Shown here: positions 2,607-61,636 of the stretch, one piece after another
Numbering within the stretch: position 1 is the first letter of the stretch
Layout: every line of letters begins with the position of its first letter
Origin: Escherichia phage YX22
Direction: 5' to 3' (one strand)
Length of the DNA stretch: 64,000 bases
Sequence record: OR776998
Made by a program: the position numbers and the translations under genes
The notes under the pieces: model-generated
Database searches by the model: none
The model's input: only the letters and a program-made list of their open reading frames with translations
What the model was told of the DNA's origin: nothing

Positions 2607-3059
2607 TTATACACCATCAATATATTTTCTCCACTCAATAGCATTTTTCACTTCGTATCCCAGTTTGTTCAGGCGATCCAAACAAGTCTCTATGAACTTG
2701 ACTTTTGCTTTTTGTTCTTGTAACAGAACAGACAACTCCACATAGTCATCGTCTGCTTTGACCCATGTATCTAGGTCAGACTTCAGGGGGCGAACCTTCA
2801 GGGGGCGCTCTGCGTAGATGTTAGGGGGTAACTCCCCTGCATAGTAGCGGCGCAGATAGAGATCGATCTGGCGGAAGCGCCCGTTGAGAAATTCAAGATA
2901 ACGCCCCTCGCGCAGATAATGCCGCTGTACAGCCATCCAAGAGCGCCCGATTTTCAGTGAGATCTGGTCAAGGTTCATGTCTTCTGGGTCCACTGTGATC
3001 AGCGGCTCCAGTTCGTTCATGATGTCCTCGGTAGCCATTGTCTGTAGTTGTTCTTTCAT
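2607..3059 (-). CDS. hypothetical protein
   Basis: Clean 150-aa ORF in the minus-strand operon. No motif recognised. Confidence 0.6.
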   Translation of the reverse strand: MKEQLQTMATEDIMNELEPLITVDPEDMNLDQISLKIGRSWMAVQRHYLREGRYLEFLNGRFRQIDLYLRRYYAGELPPNIYAERPLKVRPLKSDLDTWVKADDDYVELSVLLQEQKAKVKFIETCLDRLNKLGYEVKNAIEWRKYIDGV

Positions 3060-3089
3060 AAAATATCCCAGCTTGTCAATGTCATAGAA

Positions 3090-3815
3090 TTATACCGCAT
3101 TTCGCGGATTAGAATCAATCGCCTTCCCACCAGATAGTGGAACCAGCTGTTGGAACTTGAAGGTCACTGTCGTCACCAGCTGAGGTACAGCTGCGTCTAC
3201 GTCCACCAGTACGTTGTCCAAAGCAGTCGGGCGGGCTTCCTCCAGCACGAGAGTGAGGCCAATCGGTCGGTTGAGGTTATCCAGCAATTCAATGGTAATG
3301 TCCTTGCTGACAGGCAAATCCTTGCCGACGTTGCTGGTAATCCATTGGTGGATCTGTAACCATGATTTCCAGTCCTCGTCTATAACGAAAGTAAATACGA
3401 CGGGATCATAGGTTAAACGCTCTGAAGGTATAGAAACCAACACGTCACCAGGAGACGGACCATCGATGCCTTCGGAGTACACCCCTGGTATACTGAAGTC
3501 GTGGATGTTACGGGTTAGGAGTACAAGGTCTCCGATAGTCAGACGCCACTTATCGGACGCCGCGAAATTAGGGTTTTCGTTCTTAAATTGTACGTTGGAC
3601 ATAATAGCACCTTTGCTGTGGAGATATTTTGTGACCCTGATGCGCGGGATCAGTAGATTGTTGTTGGCATGCTCGATGCTCTTGTTTACGAGCTGTCGCA
3701 TCTTTGTCACGCCAATAATTTCTGTTTCCGAACTCTGGAACCCAGAAGTGCGCACTGTACCTGTGACGTTGTCGGCCAGCGTTCCCACTTGTAACAAGGG
3801 TATGCTGGACATCAT
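3090..3815 (-). CDS. hypothetical (possibly structural) protein; start uncertain
   Basis: The minus frame looks coding up to about 3815. Alternative starts lie at 3701 and 3602 (MSNVQFKNE). The ORF-track start at 3905 would overlap the plus-strand gene. Confidence 0.5.
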   Translation of the reverse strand: MMSSIPLLQVGTLADNVTGTVRTSGFQSSETEIIGVTKMRQLVNKSIEHANNNLLIPRIRVTKYLHSKGAIMSNVQFKNENPNFAASDKWRLTIGDLVLLTRNIHDFSIPGVYSEGIDGPSPGDVLVSIPSERLTYDPVVFTFVIDEDWKSWLQIHQWITSNVGKDLPVSKDITIELLDNLNRPIGLTLVLEEARPTALDNVLVDVDAAVPQLVTTVTFKFQQLVPLSGGKAIDSNPRNAV

Positions 3816-3873
3816 CGTGCAAGAGTTCCAGCCCTTCCAGAAGCTCGTACCTTTAGGTTGCTTTGATGAGAAC

Positions 3874-4281
3874 ATGAGCACCCTCAAGCCATACTGGAAG
3901 ACCACAATTCCTCTCCTGCGGCATGGCGATGAAGGGAAGATTCCATACCTATCAGCAAGTATTTATTACTCTCAGAATAACAGCATCATTATCACTTTTA
4001 ATCCATCATTCCATGCCAAGCTGAAGCAACACATGGTTGGGCGACTGGATACAACATCAGATATAATCGTGACGTTCAAGATCATGAATGACTCAGATAA
4101 ACCAGTACGAATCGCAACTCAGGGTGTGTTCGTTAACAACGACGCGGTTGGAAATGGGATGAGTATCTTTGAAGTTAACCCAGGGGGAACGATCTTGATC
4201 AGACTGAGTAATGTGGGTGTGAACTCCCTGCTGTTGGATGGCATCGAACCAGTGGGAGTTCTTCCGGCGCGGGAGCACTGA
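3874..4281 (+). CDS. hypothetical protein on the opposite strand
   Basis: Only the C-terminal 135 aa of plus ORF 3466..4281 looks protein-like. No credible minus ORF covers 3906-4281. Its stop abuts the stop of the 4282 gene. Confidence 0.45.
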   Translation: MSTLKPYWKTTIPLLRHGDEGKIPYLSASIYYSQNNSIIITFNPSFHAKLKQHMVGRLDTTSDIIVTFKIMNDSDKPVRIATQGVFVNNDAVGNGMSIFEVNPGGTILIRLSNVGVNSLLLDGIEPVGVLPAREH

Positions 4282-5010
4282 TTACTTCAGCGCGTTCTTC
4301 AGATTATCGGAACCAATGCTGTTGATGACACCTCCGGCGCAGATATCTTTCGCCCACTCTGATATCACGTTGGCAAAAGAGAAGTTAAGACACTTACCAA
4401 CCATGTCTTGGATATGGGCTAACTCTGCTGCAATACCGTTCGTGATGTCTTGAGCAATAGAGGCTACTGATGCGACAGCAGTGTCGATGGCTTGAGTAAC
4501 TTCAGCAGCCAGTGCCCGAATAGCATCAAGACCAGCACTGACACCCTGAGCTACCAACTCAGCCAGCTCATTCATCTTGTTTGTGATAGTTGTGAGAACA
4601 CTTTGCATGGTGTTGATCCACTGTTTGCCGAGGTTCTGAATAACCCCAAATGCATTATTGATCAGATCACAGTTGTTCGGTTCTCGACCTATAGACTTCA
4701 GGGCGGACTTATACGACACAGATGTACCGATGCGGGAATATGCCTCGTTCACTGACTGGTCGCCATAGTTGTTCAAAGTAGTGATGCTGTTGTTGGCTGA
4801 GTTGAACATTGCTGTAGATTCGTTGAGTTTGGCTGTAGTCAACCCACCTGCCGTCAGCGCTTCCTGAATCTGCGCATTTCCGGTGTTAGCCAGTGACGCT
4901 GTAGTCGCCTTACCACTGGTGATTAACCCCTGTGAGGCGCTGCTGAGGGACGGGAGAGGATTGGTAAAGGCGTTGCCCTGTGATAGGGCGTCATAGATCT
5001 GTGCGTTCAT
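4282..5010 (-). CDS. hypothetical late protein
   Basis: The ATG at 5010 (MNAQIY) lies just downstream of a late-promoter motif. The longer ORF-track start runs through that promoter. Confidence 0.6.
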   Translation of the reverse strand: MNAQIYDALSQGNAFTNPLPSLSSASQGLITSGKATTASLANTGNAQIQEALTAGGLTTAKLNESTAMFNSANNSITTLNNYGDQSVNEAYSRIGTSVSYKSALKSIGREPNNCDLINNAFGVIQNLGKQWINTMQSVLTTITNKMNELAELVAQGVSAGLDAIRALAAEVTQAIDTAVASVASIAQDITNGIAAELAHIQDMVGKCLNFSFANVISEWAKDICAGGVINSIGSDNLKNALK

Positions 5011-46804: not shown

Positions 46805-46881
46805 GGTCCTGTAGCTCAGTCGGTTAGAGCAGTGAACTCATAATTCATTGGTCGTTGGTTCAAATCCAACCAGGATCACCA
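46805..46881 (+). tRNA. tRNA with CAU anticodon (Met by anticodon; ileX-like, so possibly Ile2 reading AUA)
   Basis: Full cloverleaf: GGTCCTG/CAGGATC acceptor, GCTC..GAGC D arm, GTGAA-CTCATAA-TTCAT, GTTGG-TTCAAAT-CCAAC, encoded CCA. The variable loop TTGGTCG matches E. coli ileX. Confidence 0.9.
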
Positions 46882-47134: not shown

Positions 47135-47223
47135 GGAAGGTTGCCCGAGAGGTTTAAGGGACTCGACTGCTAATCGAGTGGGGCTTTTAGCCCCCGAAGG
47201 TTCGAATCCTTCACCTTCCGCCA
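47135..47223 (+). tRNA. tRNA-Ser (GCU)
   Basis: Class II cloverleaf: GGAAGGT/ACCTTCC, CTCGA-CTGCTAA-TCGAG, long variable arm GGGGC-tttta-GCCCC, GAAGG-TTCGAAT-CCTTC, G-CCA. Confidence 0.9.
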
Positions 47224-52050: not shown

Positions 52051-55050
52051 ATGACCGTTTTCTATACGAACGTTGCCCGCAGGGGCAATGACCTGTTGAT
52101 TCGAATTGCAGATGACATGGGTAATCGCCGTCTGTTGAAAAAGAAATTCGAACCCACTCTCTATTTACCCACGGCTGACTATTCAAATGTTGAAAAGGTC
52201 GGCCTTCTCAATGAACCCCTGGTAGCCAAGCAGTTCCCTTCCATGCGTGACGCTGATAACTATCTTGAAGAGTACAAGGAAGTCCAGGGTGCTGCCATTT
52301 ACGGGCAGACCGATTATGCATACCAGTTCATTGCCCATAGCTTTCCTGGAAAGATTGAGCCGGATTATTCCAACATCCATATTGCTAACCTCGATATCGA
52401 AGTGTTCTCCGCCGGGTGGAAAGATGGAAAGATGACCAAAGGTCCATTCCCTCACCCAACCATTGAGCAGCAGACGTTCAAAGGAAATGAGGCGCGCATT
52501 CGCCGCTTCCATAAACAAGTGCTGGCCAACCATGACTTCATCCGTGAGCACTTCCCTGGTTCTTTCATCAGCAACAACGTCACTGATCAGTTCCCTATCA
52601 TTGACAGCAACGGCAAGATCACCCAAGACATGAATGCGGCGTTCCCTATCACGCTTATCCAGCTTCAGGACATGGCGACCAATAAGTTCATGGTGTGGGG
52701 TATGCCGTGCGCGAAGGATCGTGCGAAGTTCAGATACGATCCAGAAGACGCGGAGATCGGTGGACTTGAGGTTGTCTATCAGGAGTTCACTACTGAACAA
52801 GATCTGCTGCGCTCTTTCCTGGACTTCTGGTCGGAGCGTCAGTTTGATGGCTGGACAGGCTGGAACATTGAAACGTTCGATAGCCCGTATCTTGTTGAGC
52901 GCATGAATCAGGTTCTGGGTGAGGCTGAAACGTCGCGCCTCAGTCCTTGGGGTATCATTAAGAAGCGTATCATTCGCGATAAGAAGGGCGATATCACGAC
53001 GTATCAGTTCGTGGGTTGCCCTATGCTCGATTATATGCAGATCTACAAGAAACACACGTACACCACCCGTGAACGCTACTCTCTTGACTGGATTGCGTAT
53101 TGTGAGCTGGGTGAGAAGAAGATGGACTACAGTGAGAGCAAGTCACTCTTTGATCTGTACTTCAACGACTACTGCAAACACACCCGATATGGTATCAAAG
53201 ACGTTAAGCTGGTATGGCGACTTGAACAGAAGCTGCGCCTGCTCCAGCTGATGTTCGTCCTGGCCTACCGCACCAAGTCCAACTATGAAGACGGTCTGGG
53301 CACTGTGGCTCCGTGGCTGGCCATGTGCTACTATCGTCTGTATGAGAAGGGGATAGTGCCTAAGATCCAGCGTGTATACGATGGTCCGACCGACTTTGAG
53401 GGTGCATACGTCATGGATGTGACACCAGGAATCTACTTCTGGGTCTTCTCGGAAGATTTGAACTCCCTGTATCCTCACATCATTCAGCAGTACAACCTCG
53501 GTCCAGAGACTATCGTTGGCGACAAACACCAGCGCCGTGAGATTATTGAGGCTATGTGTGAAGAGCTGGCTGCTCAGATGAATAACATGGCAACGCCGAT
53601 GCACAAACGTCGGTTGATGAAAGCCCTTCACGACAAGCTGTTGCGTGCGGTTGACGAACGCCTGCAGGTTGTTGATGAGTTGGTTGCCCTGGGTGAGTTC
53701 CACTTTGAAACCCTGCGCCGTTACAACGTGTCGTTCACGCCGAACGTTCAATTCTTCAGCAACGAGAAGATGTCGTTCCTGTCTGAAATCATGCGCGGTA
53801 TCTACAGCGACCGTAAAGTAGAGAAGGCCAAGGGTCTGAAGTATGAGCAGTGGGCTGGCTGGTGTAAAGAGATGTCGAAGGGTGACTTCCATCTTGAGTC
53901 TGCCATGAAGTCTCGCTACTATGACCCAGAGTGGTATGAAGAGCACAAGAACATTGATCTTGATGCCCTGACCGAAGTGATGAAGAAGTGGGAAGACCTG
54001 GGCGTCGCTCAAGATACCCTACAGCAAGGTCTGAAGATCTTGATGAACGCAGGTTATGGCGCTATCTCGAACGTCTGGTTCAAAGAGTACTTCAACCTCA
54101 ACATTGCCGAAGCCATCACCACATCCGGTCAGCTGATCAACAAGTGGAATAAGCGTTACACTGATGACTATCTGAACAAGCTGTGTGGTACAACAGGCCA
54201 GGACTTCGTCATCGCAGGGGATACCGACTCCAACTACATCTGCATTGAGCGTCTTGTCAAGCAGTTGTGGCCTGATGTTACTGACCATCATGCTATGGTT
54301 GATAATATCGACCAATGGATCAAAGACAACTACCAGCCGAAGACCAATGAGTGGGCACAGCTTCTGTGTAACACCATGAACGGATTTGAACAGCGCATGG
54401 TGTGGGAGCGTGAGGTCATTGCGTCAGCCGCTGTCTGGCGAGCCAAGAAGATGTATGCCATGGCCGTGTACGACAGTGAGGGTATCAAGTACGAGAAGCC
54501 GAAGATCAAGTTCAAAGGTCTGGAAGCCCGCAAGTCCACCACGCCGGAATGGTGTCGTGAACGCCTTGTCAAGTGCTATGAGAAGATCCTACTCGGCACC
54601 GAAGAGGAAGTACAGACGCTCATCTCCCAGTACAAAGAGGAGTACATGAAACTCTCTGTAGACGATATCGCCAAGGCTTCCGGCGTGTCCGACATAGAGA
54701 AGTGTGTGGCTGCTGACGGATCGTTCATCTCTGGTGCTCATTTTGCTGCAAAGGCTTGTGTGGGTTACAACCGTCTGGTTGAGAAGAACGAAGATCTGGG
54801 TCTACCGATGATCGAGTCGGGTGATAAGGTACAGATGGTGTTGTTGAAGCCAGGCAACCCATTCGGCCAGAATTACTTTGCATATCCTGAGTTCTTCCCC
54901 GAGGAGCTTGGTCTGGGTAAATGGGTGGATTATCAGGCGGCCTTTGAGAAGTCCTTCATTGATCCGATTCAGTCTATCCTCGACGTGGTCGGCTGGTCAC
55001 ACAAGCGCCGTGTGAACCTTCTTGCCATGATGCAAAAGAAGAAAGGTTGA
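52051..55050 (+). CDS. family B DNA polymerase (T4 gp43-like)
   Basis: ExoI LDIEVF, motif A DLNSLYPHII, motif B KILMNAGYG, motif C IAGDTDSNY. Confidence 0.95.
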   Translation: MTVFYTNVARRGNDLLIRIADDMGNRRLLKKKFEPTLYLPTADYSNVEKVGLLNEPLVAKQFPSMRDADNYLEEYKEVQGAAIYGQTDYAYQFIAHSFPGKIEPDYSNIHIANLDIEVFSAGWKDGKMTKGPFPHPTIEQQTFKGNEARIRRFHKQVLANHDFIREHFPGSFISNNVTDQFPIIDSNGKITQDMNAAFPITLIQLQDMATNKFMVWGMPCAKDRAKFRYDPEDAEIGGLEVVYQEFTTEQDLLRSFLDFWSERQFDGWTGWNIETFDSPYLVERMNQVLGEAETSRLSPWGIIKKRIIRDKKGDITTYQFVGCPMLDYMQIYKKHTYTTRERYSLDWIAYCELGEKKMDYSESKSLFDLYFNDYCKHTRYGIKDVKLVWRLEQKLRLLQLMFVLAYRTKSNYEDGLGTVAPWLAMCYYRLYEKGIVPKIQRVYDGPTDFEGAYVMDVTPGIYFWVFSEDLNSLYPHIIQQYNLGPETIVGDKHQRREIIEAMCEELAAQMNNMATPMHKRRLMKALHDKLLRAVDERLQVVDELVALGEFHFETLRRYNVSFTPNVQFFSNEKMSFLSEIMRGIYSDRKVEKAKGLKYEQWAGWCKEMSKGDFHLESAMKSRYYDPEWYEEHKNIDLDALTEVMKKWEDLGVAQDTLQQGLKILMNAGYGAISNVWFKEYFNLNIAEAITTSGQLINKWNKRYTDDYLNKLCGTTGQDFVIAGDTDSNYICIERLVKQLWPDVTDHHAMVDNIDQWIKDNYQPKTNEWAQLLCNTMNGFEQRMVWEREVIASAAVWRAKKMYAMAVYDSEGIKYEKPKIKFKGLEARKSTTPEWCRERLVKCYEKILLGTEEEVQTLISQYKEEYMKLSVDDIAKASGVSDIEKCVAADGSFISGAHFAAKACVGYNRLVEKNEDLGLPMIESGDKVQMVLLKPGNPFGQNYFAYPEFFPEELGLGKWVDYQAAFEKSFIDPIQSILDVVGWSHKRRVNLLAMMQKKKG

Positions 55051-56239: not shown

Positions 56240-56545
56240 GTGCAAGAACAATCCAAGTTTGGGGAAACCCCAGACAAGCGTTCCGGTGATAGCGACATGG
56301 ATAGCGTGATTAACCATGTGAACAACTTCATTCGTCAGCAGGAGACTCCAACTCCTATCGGTGCAGCCAAGGCTCTTCATGATGTACTGGTGAAGATCGG
56401 CCAGCGCTCTGAAGCGGATGAAATCTTCTATAACTTTGAAGACCAGTATAAAGTGAAGTTTGAAGAAAACGGTCGTCCGCAGGTTGCTGTGTTCTGGGCA
56501 CCTTGGCTGGGCGGCGTGAGCTGGCGTATTGAGGATGCTGTGTGA
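56240..56545 (+). CDS. hypothetical protein (GTG start)
   Basis: AGGAGG SD 6 nt before the GTG. Confidence 0.5.
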   Translation: MQEQSKFGETPDKRSGDSDMDSVINHVNNFIRQQETPTPIGAAKALHDVLVKIGQRSEADEIFYNFEDQYKVKFEENGRPQVAVFWAPWLGGVSWRIEDAV

Positions 56546-58143
56546 TGTCTCGCTACCATTACACATATAGGATAACCCATGTCCCAACTGGTAGATTCTA
56601 CGTCGGGATTCGGTCTTGTTCATGCACCCCCGAACAAGATCCCTATATGGGTTCTGGTGTGATCATCAAAAGGTTGTTGGAATCTCACCCCGCTTCTGAA
56701 TTCTTAAAGACGATAATAGAAAAGTTTGAAACCAGGTTGGAAGCATCCGACCTGGAGTCTATTATTGTTACGGAAGAGTTACTGTTGGACCCATTATGCC
56801 TGAACCTGAAATTGGGAGGAGACAATTCTATCATCCCAAACCAATTTAAGGCGGCGTTGGCTAGGACTGGCAAGAAATACAAATCTGGTATAAATCCTTG
56901 GGATGATCCAGAATACCGGGAACGTGTAATAAAATCAATAAAGGAGAACAGGGGTAATTCTCCCTACCCATTCATGGTTTCAAATGGTTATTGGTGGGTT
57001 TGGAAGGACGCCTGTAGGATCTATGATAGATGGGTGAACAACGGTGGTACTGTGAATCCTACCTGTATGCCAAAACGAGGATGTGGTTACAAATCTATCG
57101 GATTGTGGTATTCTAAACTACTGGACACAGAGTATCGTAATCTAAAGGGCGATGAGAGCGTCTTTCGTAATATGATCGCCATGTTTAAAGATGGTTGGAT
57201 TCCCAAAGAGGACAAACGTTTTATGACTATGATAAATTCTAGCGTGACGCCGGGTATTGTCGTTATTCGCGGGACAAGTGGAACGGGAAAGGGGACTCGT
57301 GTCGTTCAATTCCTTGAGTGGTTGAGAACCAAATATGAGCCAGAACTCATAGAATACGAATTCGACAAGAAGATGATCCAGGTTGGGTTTTGGTTCAAGG
57401 AAATCAATCTGGTGTTCATCGGCAAGTATACAGTGTCCAACAAATCAGGTCTAGCATCATGGACTTCCATGGATTTCATACACTCCACTCTCAAGTCTTC
57501 TGAGATGGCCAATTCGTTGTTGAAGTATCTCAAAATAAAGTTCAAAGATGCAACTATCATCTTGGAGGGGGAACCTATGATGCAGAGCCATCGTTGGCGT
57601 CCCGAGTTCGTACACCAGGACTTGGGGTTCAACAACATGGCATTCATCTCCTTTATTTACCAAGCGCGGGAAGATTACGACAAACGTATCATCGGTCGTT
57701 CTGGTAAGGCGGCGAAGGACACTGGCTGGGGAAGAAATGAACAATACACCAAGGATCACGTCAAGATCATGGGTGAGTACGCTTCCATCGGATACGAACT
57801 TGAACCAGACTCTCAGAATGAGTTGTTCATTGCAAAGGCAGCGAATGAAAATGGTGTAAAGGCAGTTGGTTGGAATATACTGAAATTCTTCGATGCCCCT
57901 CTCCACTTTATTGGTAGTTTTATTATAGATTTTGTTGGATTGAGAGGGTTGTCCAAAGAAGAGTTTCAAAAATATTGCGACACCACACCAATGTTGCGCA
58001 AGATTAAGGGTAGCAACCCTTTGGCGCACAGAGTCCCTGAGAAGCCGCAGAAGGCATCCAAAACTAAAACCAAGGCGAGCGCCCAGCCAGAAGCAACGAA
58101 GGCAGCGTCGCGCTCTCTCCTTGACCTGATGAAGAAGGGGTGA
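56545..58143 (+). CDS. GIY-YIG nuclease domain fused to a P-loop NTPase/kinase-like domain
   Basis: The N-terminus YTYRITHVPTGRFYVGIRS..DPYMGSG is GIY-YIG. From about residue 240, VVIRGTSGTGKGT is a Walker A and TIILEGEP is Walker-B-like. It is one uninterrupted frame and is A+T-rich. Confidence 0.65.
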   Translation: MSRYHYTYRITHVPTGRFYVGIRSCSCTPEQDPYMGSGVIIKRLLESHPASEFLKTIIEKFETRLEASDLESIIVTEELLLDPLCLNLKLGGDNSIIPNQFKAALARTGKKYKSGINPWDDPEYRERVIKSIKENRGNSPYPFMVSNGYWWVWKDACRIYDRWVNNGGTVNPTCMPKRGCGYKSIGLWYSKLLDTEYRNLKGDESVFRNMIAMFKDGWIPKEDKRFMTMINSSVTPGIVVIRGTSGTGKGTRVVQFLEWLRTKYEPELIEYEFDKKMIQVGFWFKEINLVFIGKYTVSNKSGLASWTSMDFIHSTLKSSEMANSLLKYLKIKFKDATIILEGEPMMQSHRWRPEFVHQDLGFNNMAFISFIYQAREDYDKRIIGRSGKAAKDTGWGRNEQYTKDHVKIMGEYASIGYELEPDSQNELFIAKAANENGVKAVGWNILKFFDAPLHFIGSFIIDFVGLRGLSKEEFQKYCDTTPMLRKIKGSNPLAHRVPEKPQKASKTKTKASAQPEATKAASRSLLDLMKKG

Positions 58144-58343: not shown

Positions 58344-58717
58344 AAATTCAAATCCCTCGCGATGCTGTGGCTGTTGCGATTGACTACACCGGAAACGCCA
58401 AGCACATTACTGCCGTGCGCCTGATTCCTGAAAAGAACTGCGTCATCCCTCAGTTCCAGCTGAATGCTAATCCGTCGTCCAAAGACTTCGGCAAGTGGTT
58501 GCAGGCTGCTCCGTTCCGTACCCAGACGAATGCTCAGATGTTCATCTCGGGTAAGACCCAAACTGCAGCCCGTCTGTGGTTCGTGACCGCTGACCGTCGC
58601 TTTGTCGATATGTGGGAACGTCCGATGGGGTTCGTGAAGCCGGAAGATATTCAGCTGGATCCTGAGCCTGAAGCTGTGGCTCCTGAAGAGGAAGCGAAAG
58701 ATGCATCATTTATCTAA
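58340..58717 (+). CDS. hypothetical protein
   Basis: The ATG at 58340 overlaps the previous stop (ATGA). The earlier part of the ORF-track frame is discounted. Confidence 0.5.
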   Translation: MKIQIPRDAVAVAIDYTGNAKHITAVRLIPEKNCVIPQFQLNANPSSKDFGKWLQAAPFRTQTNAQMFISGKTQTAARLWFVTADRRFVDMWERPMGFVKPEDIQLDPEPEAVAPEEEAKDASFI

Positions 58718-59936
58718 AATGCCGACGGGCTATACGCCTCCGGCTGAATGGAAGTACCCGATTGACCTGGCTGTTGATTATCGCAAGCCTGAGAATCGCA
58801 TGTACCTGCTCAAGGCTTGGGTGGAGGCGCTGTCCTACACAGAAGAGCACAACCAGCAGATGCGTCTGATGGACTATGCGATCGAAGTCACTGAAGGCAT
58901 CAGCCTCGAACAGAAAGTCGAGCGCAAGATCTGGATGGCATTCCTGTGGGGTTGTTGCTATAACGCTGTCGGACCGTGGACAATCTACAGTGAGTTCCCT
59001 GTACCACCCCAGTCCAAAGAAGAGATGCAGCGCTTCTCAGACTGGTACAACCTGAACTTTGAACGCATGCGATTCGATACCGACTGTCGCTACCGCAAGT
59101 CCAAGATGATTCCGTGTGTTCAGTCCTATATTGACTGGCTGGCTGGCCGTACTCAATATGACGCTTTCCGTGGGATGTTGGTGTGCATCGATAAGACAGA
59201 ACAATTCACCCAGCTGTGGGACACGGCGATGTCCTGGAAATACTTCGGTCGCCTGAGCGCCTGGAACTTCCTGGAAGCCCTGAACATGGTCTTCGGGAAC
59301 GAATACACCATTGACGTCCCTGGGTTCATGTTGCGTGACCGTGATGGAAGCGAGTCCAACCGTAATGGCGCGGCGTTCTTGTCCAACCGTGACGATTGGG
59401 TGACTAAACACGGGAAGAAAAAGATCAACGGTTGTCCTATCACGGATGAAGAGTGTGACATCCTTGAGGCCGACCTTGAGCAGGCGTTCCAGGATTGTGT
59501 GGCTGAGTTCGGGCACCTGACGTTCATCAACCGCCTGAACTTTGAAACCTCCGGTGCTTGTTGGCTGAAGAAATTCTTCCGACTGAAGAATACCCGTTAC
59601 ATCGGGTGGGACGCAGAGCGTACCTGGGATGAGATAGACTACATGGAACGCGTCTGGCCTGAATACTCCTGCGCAGCGCTCTGGGAAGCCCGTTCTCTCT
59701 GGCTGCCAGATACCCTGTTGTGTGAAAAGGCTCCTGCAGGGCACGTTCCAGGCGTCCAGAAGTGGAAGATGCCTGTGTTCTTTGAGACTGGTGTTCCTCT
59801 GCATATCTGGCACCTGCAAAGGGGTACGCGCTGGGAACCGTCCGAGGTATGTACGAACCTGAAGATGCCTGTGCGCAAGGTTGAGGACAAGCCGAAGTCC
59901 AGCAGCGTCAACCTCATGACACTCTTGAAACGCTGA
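58701..59936 (+). CDS. hypothetical 411-aa protein, Trp/Cys-rich
   Basis: GAGGA SD. No motif that I can name with confidence. Confidence 0.6.
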   Translation: MHHLSKMPTGYTPPAEWKYPIDLAVDYRKPENRMYLLKAWVEALSYTEEHNQQMRLMDYAIEVTEGISLEQKVERKIWMAFLWGCCYNAVGPWTIYSEFPVPPQSKEEMQRFSDWYNLNFERMRFDTDCRYRKSKMIPCVQSYIDWLAGRTQYDAFRGMLVCIDKTEQFTQLWDTAMSWKYFGRLSAWNFLEALNMVFGNEYTIDVPGFMLRDRDGSESNRNGAAFLSNRDDWVTKHGKKKINGCPITDEECDILEADLEQAFQDCVAEFGHLTFINRLNFETSGACWLKKFFRLKNTRYIGWDAERTWDEIDYMERVWPEYSCAALWEARSLWLPDTLLCEKAPAGHVPGVQKWKMPVFFETGVPLHIWHLQRGTRWEPSEVCTNLKMPVRKVEDKPKSSSVNLMTLLKR

Positions 59937-59972: not shown

Positions 59973-60140
59973 ATGTTACAAGATCTGCTGGTTTATGCGC
60001 TTCCTGGCGCGGTTGTCGGCTTCATCGCTGGTGCTCTGGTCTTCCGTAAACACGCGCAAGATGGTGAAGTGATTGTTCAGAAAGGCAAAGAGATTCTGGA
60101 CCAGATCGAAGCCAAACTGGAAGAGCTGAAGAAAAAGTAA
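59973..60140 (+). CDS. small membrane protein (55 aa)
   Basis: Below the ORF-track cutoff. TM segment LLVYALPGAVVGFIAGALVF, then a charged helix. Confidence 0.45.
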   Translation: MLQDLLVYALPGAVVGFIAGALVFRKHAQDGEVIVQKGKEILDQIEAKLEELKKK

Positions 60141-60159
60141 TCTGACTGGGGTTGCTTCC

Positions 60160-60185
60160 TTCAATAAAGGGGAATGGGTTATTAT
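60160..60185 (+). promoter_or_regulatory. TTCAAT-N14-TATTAT promoter-like element
   Basis: The -10 element sits in the loop of the terminator hairpin. Confidence 0.4.
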
Positions 60186-60207
60186 TAGCCCGTTCCCCTT
60201 TCTTTTT
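60169..60207 (+). terminator. rho-independent terminator
   Basis: GGGGAATGGG/CCCGTTCCCC (10 bp, one G.U) followed by TTTCTTTTT. Confidence 0.7.
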
Positions 60208-60308
60208 GCAAGAATATACATCATGGCAATGCAACGAATTGAAGATATGTCTCTACTCAACATGGAAGCGACTTTTGGCGCTTCCGTTATCGTCATGGGA
60301 GAATCCAA

Positions 60309-60527
60309 ATGATCAAGAATACCCGAACAATGAAGCGCGCAATCGCTCACTGTGTCCATTCAGTGGCAACTATTATGTTCCGCCACCACATCACATTTGA
60401 TGAAGCACTGGACCCACAGTACCATGAAGAGCGTTGGGATTTGTTGTTAAAGAACGGTGCCAATCCTGAGCATAAAGATCAACTCCTTGGGATGACCAAG
60501 GCGCAGCTCGTCGGTGAATCCAAATGA
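60309..60527 (+). CDS. hypothetical protein
   Basis: 72-aa ORF with a GGGAGA SD. Confidence 0.5.
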   Translation: MIKNTRTMKRAIAHCVHSVATIMFRHHITFDEALDPQYHEERWDLLLKNGANPEHKDQLLGMTKAQLVGESK

Positions 60528-61636
60528 TCTACCTCCTGTTTGGTGTGCCATTGGTACTGGCTATCCTGTTTGTGATCTACCACCGCAAGACCCATGAGCC
60601 GAAAGAGACTCTGATAGCGACCGCGATTGTAGTGGTGCTATCCTGTCTGATTCAGGCGGGGACTTATGCTGCGTTCTCCCTTGGCAGTTCAGGGGATGTT
60701 GAGATCCTGAACGGGTACGTCACTGCAAAGGAGCGGAATGAGGTGAGCTGTGAGCATTCATATGAATGCAACTGTTACTACACCACATCGTGCTCCGGCT
60801 CCGGCAGCAGCAAGTCCTGTACCCGCACTCGCCATTGCAGTACATGTTATGAGCATTCATATGACGTGGACTGGGATGTGTTGACGACTGTCGGTAATCT
60901 GACGATTGACCGCATTGATCGTCGCGGCCTTGGTCAGCCCCCGCGCTGGGCGCAGGTTCAGATCGGCGAACCCGCAGCCCGTGAGCATTCCTACATGAAC
61001 TATGTGCTGGGTAACAAGGACTCTCTGTTCTCTCGTTCAGACCAGCAGTTTGCTGAGCGCTTCAAAGACAAGATTCCGAAGTATCCCGAAGTCTATGACT
61101 ACTATCGCGTCACTCGTGTACTGAATGTGTCTGGTCTGGCGTTACCGACCACATACTGGAACGATTATCTGAACAATACTCTGAAAACATTAGGTGCTTC
61201 ACGTCAGGTCAATATCGTCTGGGTTGTGACATCCGGTCAGCCAGTTGAATACTTCCAGGGCTTGGTCTATGCTTGGGATGGTGGTAAAAAGAACGACGTT
61301 ATCGTCGTGACCGACATCAGCAAAGATCTGAAGATCAACTGGGGTAAGAGCACTTCGTTCGCTGATGGTATGCATAACCGTGAACTCCATTCTCGTAATG
61401 GCATGGCTCTCACAGGTCACGACATGGGCGTCGGTGTCATGGCTGATGTTGTCGCTAACATCACCAAAGGCTACAACCGCGTTGAGATGAAGGAAATGGA
61501 GTACCTGAAGTGGCGGGAACTCAAGACCTGGGAAGTTGTGGTTGTTGTTCTGCTGGGCTGCTTACCATTCACCGCAATTTTCATATTGCAGCGAATGGAG
61601 TACAATGGTGGTCGTCGTTATCCGTTTAATTTTTAA
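60524..61636 (+). CDS. Cys-rich membrane protein
   Basis: Two N-terminal TM segments and one C-terminal TM. CEHSYECNCYYTTSC..CTRTRHCSTCYEHSY cluster, with the EHSY motif occurring three times. Confidence 0.6.
   Translation: MIYLLFGVPLVLAILFVIYHRKTHEPKETLIATAIVVVLSCLIQAGTYAAFSLGSSGDVEILNGYVTAKERNEVSCEHSYECNCYYTTSCSGSGSSKSCTRTRHCSTCYEHSYDVDWDVLTTVGNLTIDRIDRRGLGQPPRWAQVQIGEPAAREHSYMNYVLGNKDSLFSRSDQQFAERFKDKIPKYPEVYDYYRVTRVLNVSGLALPTTYWNDYLNNTLKTLGASRQVNIVWVVTSGQPVEYFQGLVYAWDGGKKNDVIVVTDISKDLKINWGKSTSFADGMHNRELHSRNGMALTGHDMGVGVMADVVANITKGYNRVEMKEMEYLKWRELKTWEVVVVVLLGCLPFTAIFILQRMEYNGGRRYPFNF

Follow-up and report, generated by a model that had tools for sequence, protein, structure and literature searches.

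A homing-endonuclease module joined in frame to a divergent 5-hmdU DNA kinase 2 in Ackermannviridae phages

Introduction

Why would a phage gene for a DNA-modifying kinase begin with a homing endonuclease? The question is raised by one gene in a 64,000-nucleotide stretch of Escherichia phage YX22 (record OR776998; hereafter, the window). The source phage is an Agtrevirus (Ackermannviridae). A sequence-only reading of this DNA had seen a single 532-aa frame that joins a GIY-YIG N-terminus to a P-loop kinase/NTPase-like domain. It offered 2 explanations: a homing endonuclease had inserted at the 5′ end of a kinase gene, or the product was a new two-domain enzyme.

56545..58143, plus strand: whole fused gene, homing-endonuclease module plus 5-hmdU DNA kinase 2 (single 532-aa open reading frame plus stop)

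The frame runs from an ATG at 56545 to a stop codon at 58141-58143; a GTG lies in frame at 56542, one codon 5′ of the ATG. The joined frame is borne out by the open reading frame itself, by its motifs, and by a 519-bit match to the HMUD2 family, and the motifs sit where they had been placed: MTMINSS at residues 227-233, GTSGTGKGT at 243-251, and ILEGEP at 339-344. Since the frame is uninterrupted in 28 phage records and in a 52-member cluster at 90% identity, a sequencing or assembly artefact is ruled out.

The gene is already deposited, half-annotated. Its exact protein match is WPH64586.1 of Escherichia phage YX22, and residues 35-532 align to PHROG 15209 with 1117 bits. Deposited labels for the family include F-LimXI, "endonuclease", "P-loop nucleotide kinase2", and PHROG 15209; others in current use are "guanylate kinase" and "hypothetical protein". 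Our literature search found no paper on the fusion; Iyer et al. 2013, in which the kinase family was reportedly defined, lies outside its coverage. A PDB sequence search with the whole protein gave no match, and Foldseek with the full-length model returned generic P-loop kinases only. There are no intein/Hint Pfam matches in the protein and no Rfam intron families in the window, and the frame runs on into the kinase. A promoter and terminator scan inside the gene found nothing above shuffled expectation, which leaves an internal promoter unsupported.

The endonuclease module

Residues 1 to about 228 are predicted, from motifs, profiles, and structural models, to form a complete Seg-like GIY-YIG homing endonuclease composed of a nuclease domain, a linker, and a helical C-terminal region.

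56545..56829, plus strand: GIY-YIG nuclease domain, residues 1-95 (motifs YHYTY, FYVG, YMGSG, E71, N87)
56830..56985, plus strand: flexible linker, residues 96-147 (pLDDT <50 at 94-120 and 131-148)
56986..57228, plus strand: helical C-terminal region, residues 148-228 (GYWWVWKD...MFKDGW; predicted helices, PHROG profiles)

Residues Y8, Y19, G21, D32, Y34, G36, S37, E71, N87, G91, and G92, invariant in 39 free-standing Seg-like relatives, are retained in the fused protein. The AF2 model of the nuclease domain reaches a pLDDT of 93, and its top 3 Foldseek matches in the PDB are the I-TevI catalytic domain (probability 0.87-0.96, TM about 0.6), with E-values of only 0.2-0.45 and a likeness that is visible only when the N-terminal domain is modeled separately. 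A PDB search with the nuclease-domain profile gave no match, and no equivalent of I-TevI Arg27 was identified in the domain. Pfam GIY-YIG models fall below threshold on the window protein (E=0.005 and 0.48); on the fused homologue P0007, SegE_GIY-YIG scores above the cut-off. Among 1.84 billion representatives, the N-terminus draws 6263 GIY-YIG-type matches, and the nuclease domain is at most 57% identical to free-standing relatives.

The linker is the most variable, indel-rich stretch of the fused-family alignment. The helices that follow it are modeled with pLDDT 65-87. Four PHROG "homing endonuclease" profiles match this C-terminal region weakly (E=5.6e-5 to 5.4e-3), and 3 of these matches end 1-5 positions from the profile C-terminus, at residues ~200-230; Pfam gave no match over about residues 148-232. 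Within the 1.84 billion representatives, the helical region is found at whole length only in fused proteins, and full matches to residues 1-232 are absent among free-standing endonucleases. We presume that the helical region, about residues 148-228, is the DNA-binding part. The sequence-only reading had implied that the kinase had supplanted the C-terminal region typical of Seg enzymes; a region of this type appears still to be in place, and the kinase is added after it.

The kinase and its tail

Residues 229-532 belong to the 5-hmdU DNA kinase 2 family and are the positional orthologue of ViI gp243. The domain had been taken for a P-loop kinase or NTPase of unstated family. It is a kinase, but one of a known (ViI gp243-like) family, and residues 229-532 match HMUD2 rather than a known DNA-binding domain of Seg-like nucleases.

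57229..58017, plus strand: kinase core, divergent 5-hmdU DNA kinase 2 allele, residues 229-491 (Pfam HMUD2)
57271..57297, plus strand: Walker A / P-loop GTSGTGKGT, residues 243-251 (almost wholly invariant in 36 kinases)
57559..57576, plus strand: ILEGEP, residues 339-344, with invariant E341-G342-E343, Walker-B-like (kinase alignment)
58018..58143, plus strand: C-terminal tail, residues 492-532 (PLAHRV...LMKKG), of the resident backbone type

Pfam PF18747 (HMUD2) aligns residues 236-531 to profile positions 2-298 of 298 with 519.2 bits (E=3.8e-156), against a cut-off of 25 bits. Across 36 kinases, G243, S245, G248, K249, G250, and R252 of the P-loop are invariant and T251 nearly so; all 50 invariant columns of this alignment are retained in the fused protein, including GxSGxGKGTR, EGE, and GRSGK. 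The predicted fold is that of a P-loop kinase. Core plus tail (residues 238-532) are 47% identical to ViI gp243. Phosphorylation of 5-hmdU DNA has been demonstrated for ViI gp243 and gp67, M6 gp54, and others (PMC8989533). The fused kinase is presumably active.

The tails track the phage backbone and not the fused or unfused state of the gene; by this measure the tail does not belong to the imported part. The kinase-domain tree does not resolve all fused kinases as a single clade (15 of 100 bootstraps), and a single origin is therefore argued from the common endonuclease module and junction.

These phages are described as carrying 2 kinases (PMC5889632; PMC6336734). Because a Walker-A scan of the 64-kb window found no second one, kinase 1 in phages with the fused gene rests on the PP35 paper (PMC6336734). 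An "HMUDK_hel" protein used as a probe for the second kinase proved to be an aGPT-Pplase1-type protein.

The domain junction carries a candidate signal for translation.

57208..57231, plus strand: possible internal start, with GAGGA at 57208-57212, ATG (M227) at 57223-57225, and ATG (invariant M229) at 57229-57231 (SD-like motif)

In 8 of 8 fused genes, a GAGG stands 9-11 nt 5′ of an in-frame ATG at the junction. The anti-SD duplex there reaches -5.8 to -6.5 kcal/mol; true starts in the window have a median of -6.0, and a value of -5 kcal/mol is attained at only 4.7% of the remaining internal ATGs. Translation may accordingly begin anew at M227/M229. Evidence of this kind is tempered by the strongest internal SD-like site of the gene, GGAGGGGG ahead of M345/M346, which plainly results from the EGEP codons.

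One site, three states

NT5C and DUF7254 lie upstream of kinase 2 in the window and ADDT/aGPT-Pplase2 lies three genes downstream, which is the layout of ViI gp243-gp247.

56240..56545, plus strand: DUF7254 gene, proposed left homology arm (Pfam PF23912, E=1.4e-51)
56551..58017, plus strand: tract replaced relative to near-identical ordinary-kinase phages (homology breaks against SKML-39 and Ag3)
58701..59936, plus strand: amino-acid:DNA transferase, aGPT-Pplase2, ViI gp247 homologue (Pfam PF18724 ADDT, E=4.5e-60)

The DUF7254 stop and the fused-gene start overlap (TGATG), which suggests translational coupling. DUF7254 precedes kinase 2 in every Ackermannviridae locus examined; for 2 distant contigs (L004 and L005) no DUF7254 gene is recorded. 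The ADDT gene adjoins kinase 2 or lies 2-3 genes downstream in all loci, and the amino-acid:DNA transferase consumes the kinase 2 product.

The same site exists in 3 states: the kinase alone (SKML-39), a SegD-like endonuclease gene followed by the kinase (Ag3), and the fusion (the window). These states are seen in Agtrevirus, Limestonevirus, and Taipeivirus. Among the window, SKML-39, and Ag3, flanking proteins share 92-98% identity; the fused kinase core is only 41-44% identical to the resident kinases of the latter two. Nucleotide homology to both phages ends at 56550/56554 and returns at 58018 with 95% identity. Like boundaries recur in 2 more backbones, in KpS110 compared with 0507-KN2-1 and in the P0004 contig compared with the P0050 contig; KpS110 is the sole fused Taipeivirus, and its flanks are 98.3% identical to those of 0507-KN2-1. 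In all 3 backbones, the exchanged cassette extends from the start codon as far as the DPLAHRV motif, which is conserved. Since the core is so unlike the resident one, nuclease and kinase core must have arrived together and replaced the resident core. The proposal of an endonuclease at the 5′ end of a kinase gene thus stands insofar as a homing-endonuclease module has been joined there, but the event was no simple insertion. The proposed check, whether relatives encode the P-loop protein alone, comes out positive for the ordinary kinase, as in SKML-39, and negative for the fused clade: no stand-alone kinase of that clade was found in 5.8 billion proteins, where the best match is ~50% identical.

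The Ag3 gene (orf00242) shares the insertion point, directly after the DUF7254 stop, and also encodes a GIY-YIG protein (Pfam E=4e-8); it is found at this site in 40 phage records from several genera. Unlike the fused module, it is a separate 228-aa open reading frame with an 8-nt overlap with the kinase start, and a clean insertion beside an ordinary kinase that is 96% identical to the endonuclease-free SKML-39 kinase. As a precursor of the fusion it is ruled out, because its sequence shows no relationship to that of the fused module (24% identity over 86 aa).

A probable mobile cassette

The reading we favor, and consider reasonably probable, is that of a mobile cassette made of a Seg-like homing endonuclease and a divergent kinase 2 core resistant to its cleavage. 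In a mixed infection, the endonuclease would cut the kinase 2 locus of a relative with the ordinary allele, and double-strand-break repair would copy the nuclease and the cleavage-resistant kinase core into the cut locus. The left junction would form in the conserved end of DUF7254 and the right junction in the conserved stretch that encodes DPLAHRV; with junctions at these positions, the recipient would be left with a functional kinase and the C-terminal tail it had before. Fusion would lend the nuclease the transcription and translational coupling of the kinase gene, and would bind it permanently to an allele spared from its cleavage. The products would be a 60-kDa fusion and possibly also a ~34-kDa protein from M227/M229.

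Sequence divergence demonstrates recent lateral spread of the cassette across genera. PMBT18 and LIMEstone1 differ by 0.3-1.7% in the gene and by 15-30% in most flanking 300-nt windows. Relative to the window, pSal-SNUABM-02 differs by 2-3% in the cassette and 9.5-13% in the flanks, and CECAV050 has 1 mismatch in 1455 nt of cassette with flanks at ~2.3%. Base composition is also distinct. G+C is 44.7% in the gene, ~50% in the 5-kb flanks, and 48.1% in the window. The description of the whole gene as A+T-rich is therefore apt in relative terms, but not for the last 126 nt, the tail, at 57.9%. The kinase core has 44.4% G+C vs 54.4% for the standard core, and the cassette lies below its backbone by 5-8 points in 4 of 5 Ackermannviridae backbones and by 3 points in the fifth. 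Transfer of a 1.5-kb tract could stem from general phage recombination without the nuclease; under the favored reading, the nuclease itself would drive the spread, and its cut would fall in the ordinary kinase 2 locus.

Distribution, selection, and rival explanations

The fused gene is carried by ~28 of ~360 Ackermannviridae-type records, and the ordinary kinase 2 allele is far commoner. Fusions of 523-537 aa recur at identities as low as 38%, with the ADDT gene adjacent or at most three genes away, and their domains diverge in step. The dN/dS ratios, 0.09-0.19 for the nuclease (with saturated dS), 0.07-0.42 for the middle region, and 0.04-0.07 for the kinase, place all domains under purifying selection. 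No truncated, frame-shifted, or nuclease-deleted derivative occurs in the 52 cluster members or the 28 phage records. Divergence and substitution patterns together establish a fusion that is old and selectively maintained. The gene does encode 2 domains in one protein, as the second of the original explanations had it, but with 38% identity between its extremes and earlier deposits it is not newly formed.

These observations tell against the idea of an inert accident, in which loss of a stop codon joined a free-standing endonuclease gene to the downstream kinase, the nuclease is inactive, the gene moves only by ordinary homologous recombination between co-infecting phages, and the fusion or an internal start supplies all working kinase. 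The 8-nt overlap in Ag3 would make a one-step fusion mechanistically easy, an SD-like motif plus ATG still stands at the junction, and Pfam nuclease models score weakly on the window protein. Such an accident should decay, yet the nuclease has the low, dS-saturated ratio given above, its motif residues are invariant across lineages, and broken or nuclease-free forms are absent from the cluster and the phage records. Moreover, the Ag3 endonuclease is unrelated, and the sharply lower divergence restricted to the cassette argues for drive on that tract. We regard an accident as very improbable indeed.

A stronger rival is a domesticated bifunctional enzyme, in which the nuclease-derived module works with the kinase and no longer for its own spread. 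Candidate roles include bringing the kinase to particular DNA sequences, nicking newly made 5-hmdU DNA, excluding co-infecting phages, and degrading unmodified host or competitor DNA, for which T4 EndoII, a GIY-YIG enzyme, provides a model. Maintenance of the fusion to 38% identity with purifying selection on every domain fits this explanation, as does the absence of either half alone from 5.8 billion or 1.84 billion proteins; a purely selfish element explains such constant pairing no better than a selected two-domain function does. Distant fusions resemble one another most in residues 151-230, next to the junction (51-55% identity). In P0006/P0007, a distant lineage, the G+C of the fused gene equals that of its own genome, and no unfused neighbor allele was found. 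Finally, ICP1 offers a precedent, Odn, reportedly a homing-endonuclease scaffold domesticated by a phage (Barth et al. 2021). Against domestication, the module is dispensable, being absent from phages with 98% identical flanks and present in so few of the records; the architecture of a mobile endonuclease appears to be kept in full; transfer between genera is recent and the composition foreign. In addition, a second, unrelated endonuclease gene occupies the same insertion point, which marks the site as a homing hot spot and not as a place that requires a nuclease. On balance, domestication is a possible but doubtful explanation.

Alternatively, the kinase may be the cargo that matters and the nuclease a mere vehicle: a divergent core could alter which or how many thymines are hypermodified, and so change restriction evasion. 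Without exception, the fused kinase core is of the divergent type and moves together with the nuclease. Thymines are only partly modified in ViI-type phages, ~40% (PMC11721090), conversion of 5-hmdU is sequence-specific in ΦW-14 and SP10 (PMC5889632), and 2 kinases per phage (PMC5889632; PMC6336734) leave room for specialization. However, catalytic and family-invariant residues are all common to both alleles, and the ordinary allele predominates by far. We consider this reading quite unlikely.

A further, integrated function combines these elements. The kinase domain would recognize 5-hmdU in fresh, unhypermodified phage DNA and bring the endonuclease to cleavable DNA; the cassette kinase would have another modification specificity; and internal starts at M227/M229 would determine how much free kinase is made relative to nuclease-kinase. 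This seems unlikely, if a little less so than the cargo explanation; if it were true, homing would spread a new variant of "epigenetic armor" between phage genera.

Relation to known systems

The mobile-cassette reading places the gene close to the Seg endonucleases of T4, whose cassettes lack promoters and bring about co-conversion and localized marker exclusion (PMC2988022). SegB, SegD, SegF, and SegG share with the fused module an N-terminal GIY-YIG domain, a flexible linker, and a C-terminal region that is, in the fused module, predicted to be helical. Also shared are promoter-less insertion directly 5′ of a conserved gene, presence/absence polymorphism in close relatives, and replacement of the neighboring allele along with the endonuclease gene. 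The fused module differs in that it lacks a stop and forms one polypeptide with the product of its neighbor instead of standing free; its co-transferred core is deeply divergent and paralogue-like (41-44%) and not a close variant; and its halves are never found apart. More broadly, endonuclease genes lie at boundaries of genetic exchange between phages (PMC10448857).

On the kinase side, the fused protein belongs to the same family as ViI gp243 and lies, as gp243 does, after DUF7254 and before the amino-acid:DNA transferase. ViI gp243 and 5-hmdU DNA kinase 2 are reportedly the subject of Lee et al. 2018 and 2021. In contrast to the fused kinase, which bears a 228-aa endonuclease module and sits on a separate deep branch, gp243 and nearly all relatives are stand-alone proteins of ~300 aa. 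Published 5-HMUDK fusions are with aGPT-Pplase (SP10 gp186) and PLP enzymes, none with a nuclease (PMC8989533).

Like inteins and intron endonucleases, the fused endonuclease lies within or in frame with an important host gene, uses its signals, and would spread by homing. Unlike them, the gene has no splicing elements by Pfam and Rfam, and the mature host protein retains the endonuclease, except where internal initiation skips it. ICP1 Odn and the shuffled chimeras reportedly described by Barth et al. (2021, 2023) also join a homing-endonuclease scaffold to a domain of another gene. There, DNA-binding domains are swapped and the nuclease is retargeted, whereas the fused gene keeps its original putative DNA-binding region and appends a whole DNA-modification enzyme.

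Significance

Phage homing endonucleases are known as free-standing genes, intron passengers, and inteins. An endonuclease stably fused in frame to a divergent copy of a host enzyme, and mobile together with it, would add a fourth mode of persistence. An apt annotation is "homing endonuclease / 5-hmdU DNA kinase fusion". Kinase 2 exists as 2 deeply divergent alleles, which raises the matters of differences in specificity and of nuclease action on DNA that contains 5-hmdU or is hypermodified. Biocontrol and therapy are widely proposed uses of these phages. If the mobile-cassette reading is true, the locus would be a clean natural case of a selfish nuclease that swaps alleles of a functional gene between phage genera, and the first post-replicative step of thymidine hypermodification would be encoded by a horizontally mobile gene in the Ackermannviridae.

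Architecture of the fused gene

The endonuclease and the kinase lie in one frame, as the sequence-only reading had claimed, and the ATG overlaps the stop codon of the upstream gene (TGATG). The three motifs named in that reading are likewise all present:

Window 56545-58143, + strand: fused gene, a single uninterrupted ORF of 532 codons
Residues 227-233: MTMINSS
Residues 243-251: P-loop GTSGTGKGT
Residues 339-344: ILEGEP

The gene had also been called A+T-rich; its G+C is 44.7% against about 50% in the flanks, so the description holds in relative but not in absolute terms. The same ORF is present in 28 phage records, and the 90%-identity cluster of the protein has 52 members, including the identical WPH64586.1 (Escherichia phage YX22); an assembly artefact is therefore ruled out.

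The full-length structural model has four parts:

First part: nuclease domain, confident
Residues 94-148: linker, disordered
Residues 150-232: helical region
Residues 237-490: kinase, confident

Residues 1-95 align to thousands of free-standing GIY-YIG endonucleases (identity at most 57%) and retain every family-invariant residue (Y8, Y19, G21, D32, Y34, G36, S37, E71, and N87). Modelled on its own with AlphaFold, this domain reaches pLDDT 93, and its three best PDB matches are all the I-TevI catalytic domain. Several PHROG "homing endonuclease" families align with the helical region, in most cases to within a few positions of the profile's end. The endonuclease module thus appears complete, with the kinase added after it; the earlier idea that the kinase took the place of the usual DNA-binding part does not hold, since the helical region remains.

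The domain identity of the gene is answered by a Pfam scan. Residues 236-531 match the whole PF18747 profile (5-hmdU DNA kinase 2; E=3.8e-156), and all columns invariant in the 36-member family alignment are retained, including G243, S245, G248-K249-G250, E341-G342-E343, and R385-S386-G387-K388. The kinase half is 47% identical to ViI gp243 and occupies its position, with the DUF7254 gene upstream and the amino-acid:DNA transferase gene (gp247) three genes downstream. ViI gp243 moves one phosphate from ATP onto 5-hmdU in DNA, the entry step to 5-NeOmdU (PMC8989533). The fused kinase is presumably active.

A polymorphic locus and its replacement boundaries

Within Agtrevirus the locus exists in three states: a 305-aa kinase alone (SKML-39); the same kinase behind an unrelated SegD-like endonuclease gene of 228 aa (Ag3 and RPN242); and the fusion (window). 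Between these phages, flanking proteins are 92-98% identical and kinase cores 41-44%. Nucleotide homology ends at 56550, at the start codon, and picks up again where the PLAHRV codons begin, at 58018, 126 nt ahead of the stop. The cassette thus replaces the resident kinase core. KpS110, the sole fused Taipeivirus, has flanks 98.3% identical to those of 0507-KN2-1, and the right junction between the two again lies 126 nt ahead of the stop; the metagenomic contigs P0004 and P0050 repeat the replacement pattern. The replacement ends before the Lys-rich C-terminal tails, which accordingly track the phage backbone, whether the kinase is fused or not.

The tail after DPLAHRV (window 58018-58143, residues 492-532) is near-identical in the fused and ordinary kinases of one lineage and differs from lineage to lineage. 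One possibility is a lineage-specific peptide that docks to another phage protein; another is that the tail simply falls beyond the conversion tract.

The SegD-like gene has its own distribution:

L002 (Ag3 locus) 3546-4232: Ag3 orf00242, SegD-like GIY-YIG endonuclease gene, in every case directly upstream of kinase 2

It sits at the fusion's insertion point in 40 phage records (62-100% identity) from Agtrevirus, Limestonevirus (XF4, Coodle), Kuttervirus, Taipeivirus, and Vibrio phages. Two rival endonuclease families thus share the 5' edge of kinase 2 as a standing target.

Recent movement of the cassette

Among fusion-bearing phages, the cassette is much less diverged than its flanks, revealing recent lateral transfer.

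Divergence of cassette and flanks between fusion-bearing phages
Window vs pSal-SNUABM-02: cassette 2.2-3.2%; flanks 9.5-13%
Window vs PMBT18: cassette 6-8%; flanks 13-22%
Window vs CECAV050: cassette 1 mismatch in 1455 nt; flanks about 2.3%
PMBT18 (Salmonella) vs LIMEstone1 (Dickeya): cassette 0.3-1.7%; flanks 15-30%

PMBT18 (L020 3301-4800) and LIMEstone1 (L001) infect different hosts; their low-divergence tract covers some 1.5 kb of the fused gene, with 98.3-99.7% identity. Within Ackermannviridae, the cassette, kinase core included, lies 3-8 points below backbone G+C, and the ordinary kinase core lies at or above it. Between pSal-SNUABM-02 (L018) and CAU_YEP3 (L019), whose fused genes both span 3043-4641, the kinase cores show no difference over 783 nt, against 27.7% divergence in the nuclease domains and 10.9% in the linker/DNA-binding region. 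This pattern indicates recombination inside the cassette near domain borders, with nuclease domains being swapped.

Age and maintenance of the fusion

The fusion is old and under purifying selection. A search of 5.8 billion proteins recovered fusions 523-537 aa long, with identities of 80, 78, 64, 64, 38, and 38%; the form called as 495 aa merely begins at M35, its N-terminus being intact behind a GTG start. All these genes lie in phage contigs, adjoining the amino-acid:DNA transferase gene or at most 3 genes from it, and most contigs keep the full synteny of polB, DUF7292, NT5C, DUF7254, and the fusion. Nuclease, middle region, and kinase diverge in parallel, with dN/dS of 0.09-0.19, 0.07-0.42, and 0.04-0.07, respectively. 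That the fusion is an inert accident is very improbable, given selection on the nuclease and the lack of decayed copies.

A domesticated two-domain enzyme would explain why the halves are never found apart: full-length matches to residues 1-232 among 1.84 billion representatives are limited to fused proteins, and the 5.8 billion proteins hold no stand-alone kinase of the fused branch, the best being about 50% identical, a figure inflated by the common tail. We nonetheless think domestication rather unlikely, since the module is dispensable in 98%-identical relatives, retains the architecture of a mobile element, and carries a transfer signal. The kinase tree neither supports nor rejects a single clade for all fused kinases.

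The most distant fused genes (P0007 and P0006; 38% identity) lie on the metagenomic phage contigs L004 and L005, of 55-59% G+C. There the transferase gene directly follows the fused gene, whose G+C equals that of its genome, and one neighbouring gene has its closest cultured relative in Pseudomonas phage Cygsa01. Such phages may be the "native" home of the fusion.

A possible internal start

In all 8 fused genes the domain junction carries an invariant Met (M229 in the window), and GAGG stands 9-11 nt ahead of an in-frame ATG, which is that of M227 in the window group and of M229 in the others; the amino acids encoded across GAGG vary between lineages. Anti-SD pairing there, at -5.8 to -6.5 kcal/mol, equals the median of the window's true starts and is attained by <5% of other internal ATGs, so that a stand-alone kinase of ~34 kDa could be co-produced. 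These signals are only suggestive, because the strongest internal SD-like sequence, GGAGGGGG (window 57565-57585, -11.2 kcal/mol, before ATGATG at M345/M346), is encoded by the invariant EGEP motif and is almost certainly a coding by-product, which urges caution with SD-based arguments. No internal promoter stands out in the fused gene.

Other features of the window

The family-B DNA polymerase gene (window 52051-55050) is uninterrupted, at 999 aa; its LIMEstone1 orthologue is in three pieces, with two endonuclease-containing insertions, I-LimII and I-LimIII. Window 60000-61000 shows 168-245 mismatched columns per 250 nt against the otherwise 98% identical vB_CECAV_050. The stretch, past a terminator-like hairpin (60166-60201), is a site of local replacement or indels lying downstream of the transferase operon. 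An Rfam scan of the window brought only two tRNAs to threshold, both in one ORF-poor stretch:

Window 46805-46881: tRNA-Met (CAT)
Window 47135-47223: tRNA-Ser (GCT)

Proposed mechanism and significance

We consider it probable that the fused gene is a mobile cassette, an active Seg-like endonuclease joined to a kinase core that escapes its cutting. The cassette would enter loci with the ordinary allele by double-strand-break repair, with the conserved DUF7254 end and the conserved DPLAHRV stretch as homology arms; fusion would supply the nuclease with the kinase gene's expression signals and render loss of the nuclease alone unlikely. We infer both the nuclease's causal role in transfer and the location of its cut. 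Marker exclusion and co-conversion are documented for T4 SegF and SegG (PMC2988022), and the same mechanism is proposed here, taken one step further in that the boundary between element and host gene has been deleted.

Each domain is from a known family, and the gene has been deposited many times. The region is matched at 98-99% identity by Agtrevirus-type Ackermannviridae (vB_CECAV_050 of Salmonella; PC3 and ZQ1 of Escherichia) and at 92% by Dickeya phage LIMEstone1, whose ORF186, named F-LimXI, figures in a 2012 paper as a SegB-like free-standing GIY-YIG homing endonuclease (PMC3296691). Elsewhere the same gene is annotated "P-loop nucleotide kinase2" or "putative phosphotransferase," and the PP35 paper counts it as one of the modification pathway's two kinases (PMC6336734). 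No paper found in the literature comments on the fusion, Iyer et al. 2013 lying outside that coverage.

What appears undescribed is the architecture, in which a homing endonuclease and a DNA-hypermodification enzyme are translationally fused, together with its behavior: the fusion is kept down to 38% identity, moves between phage genera with its own kinase core, and has a second endonuclease gene as competitor for its site. There is an outside chance that the kinase is cargo with altered specificity, which, if true, would be the most interesting outcome.
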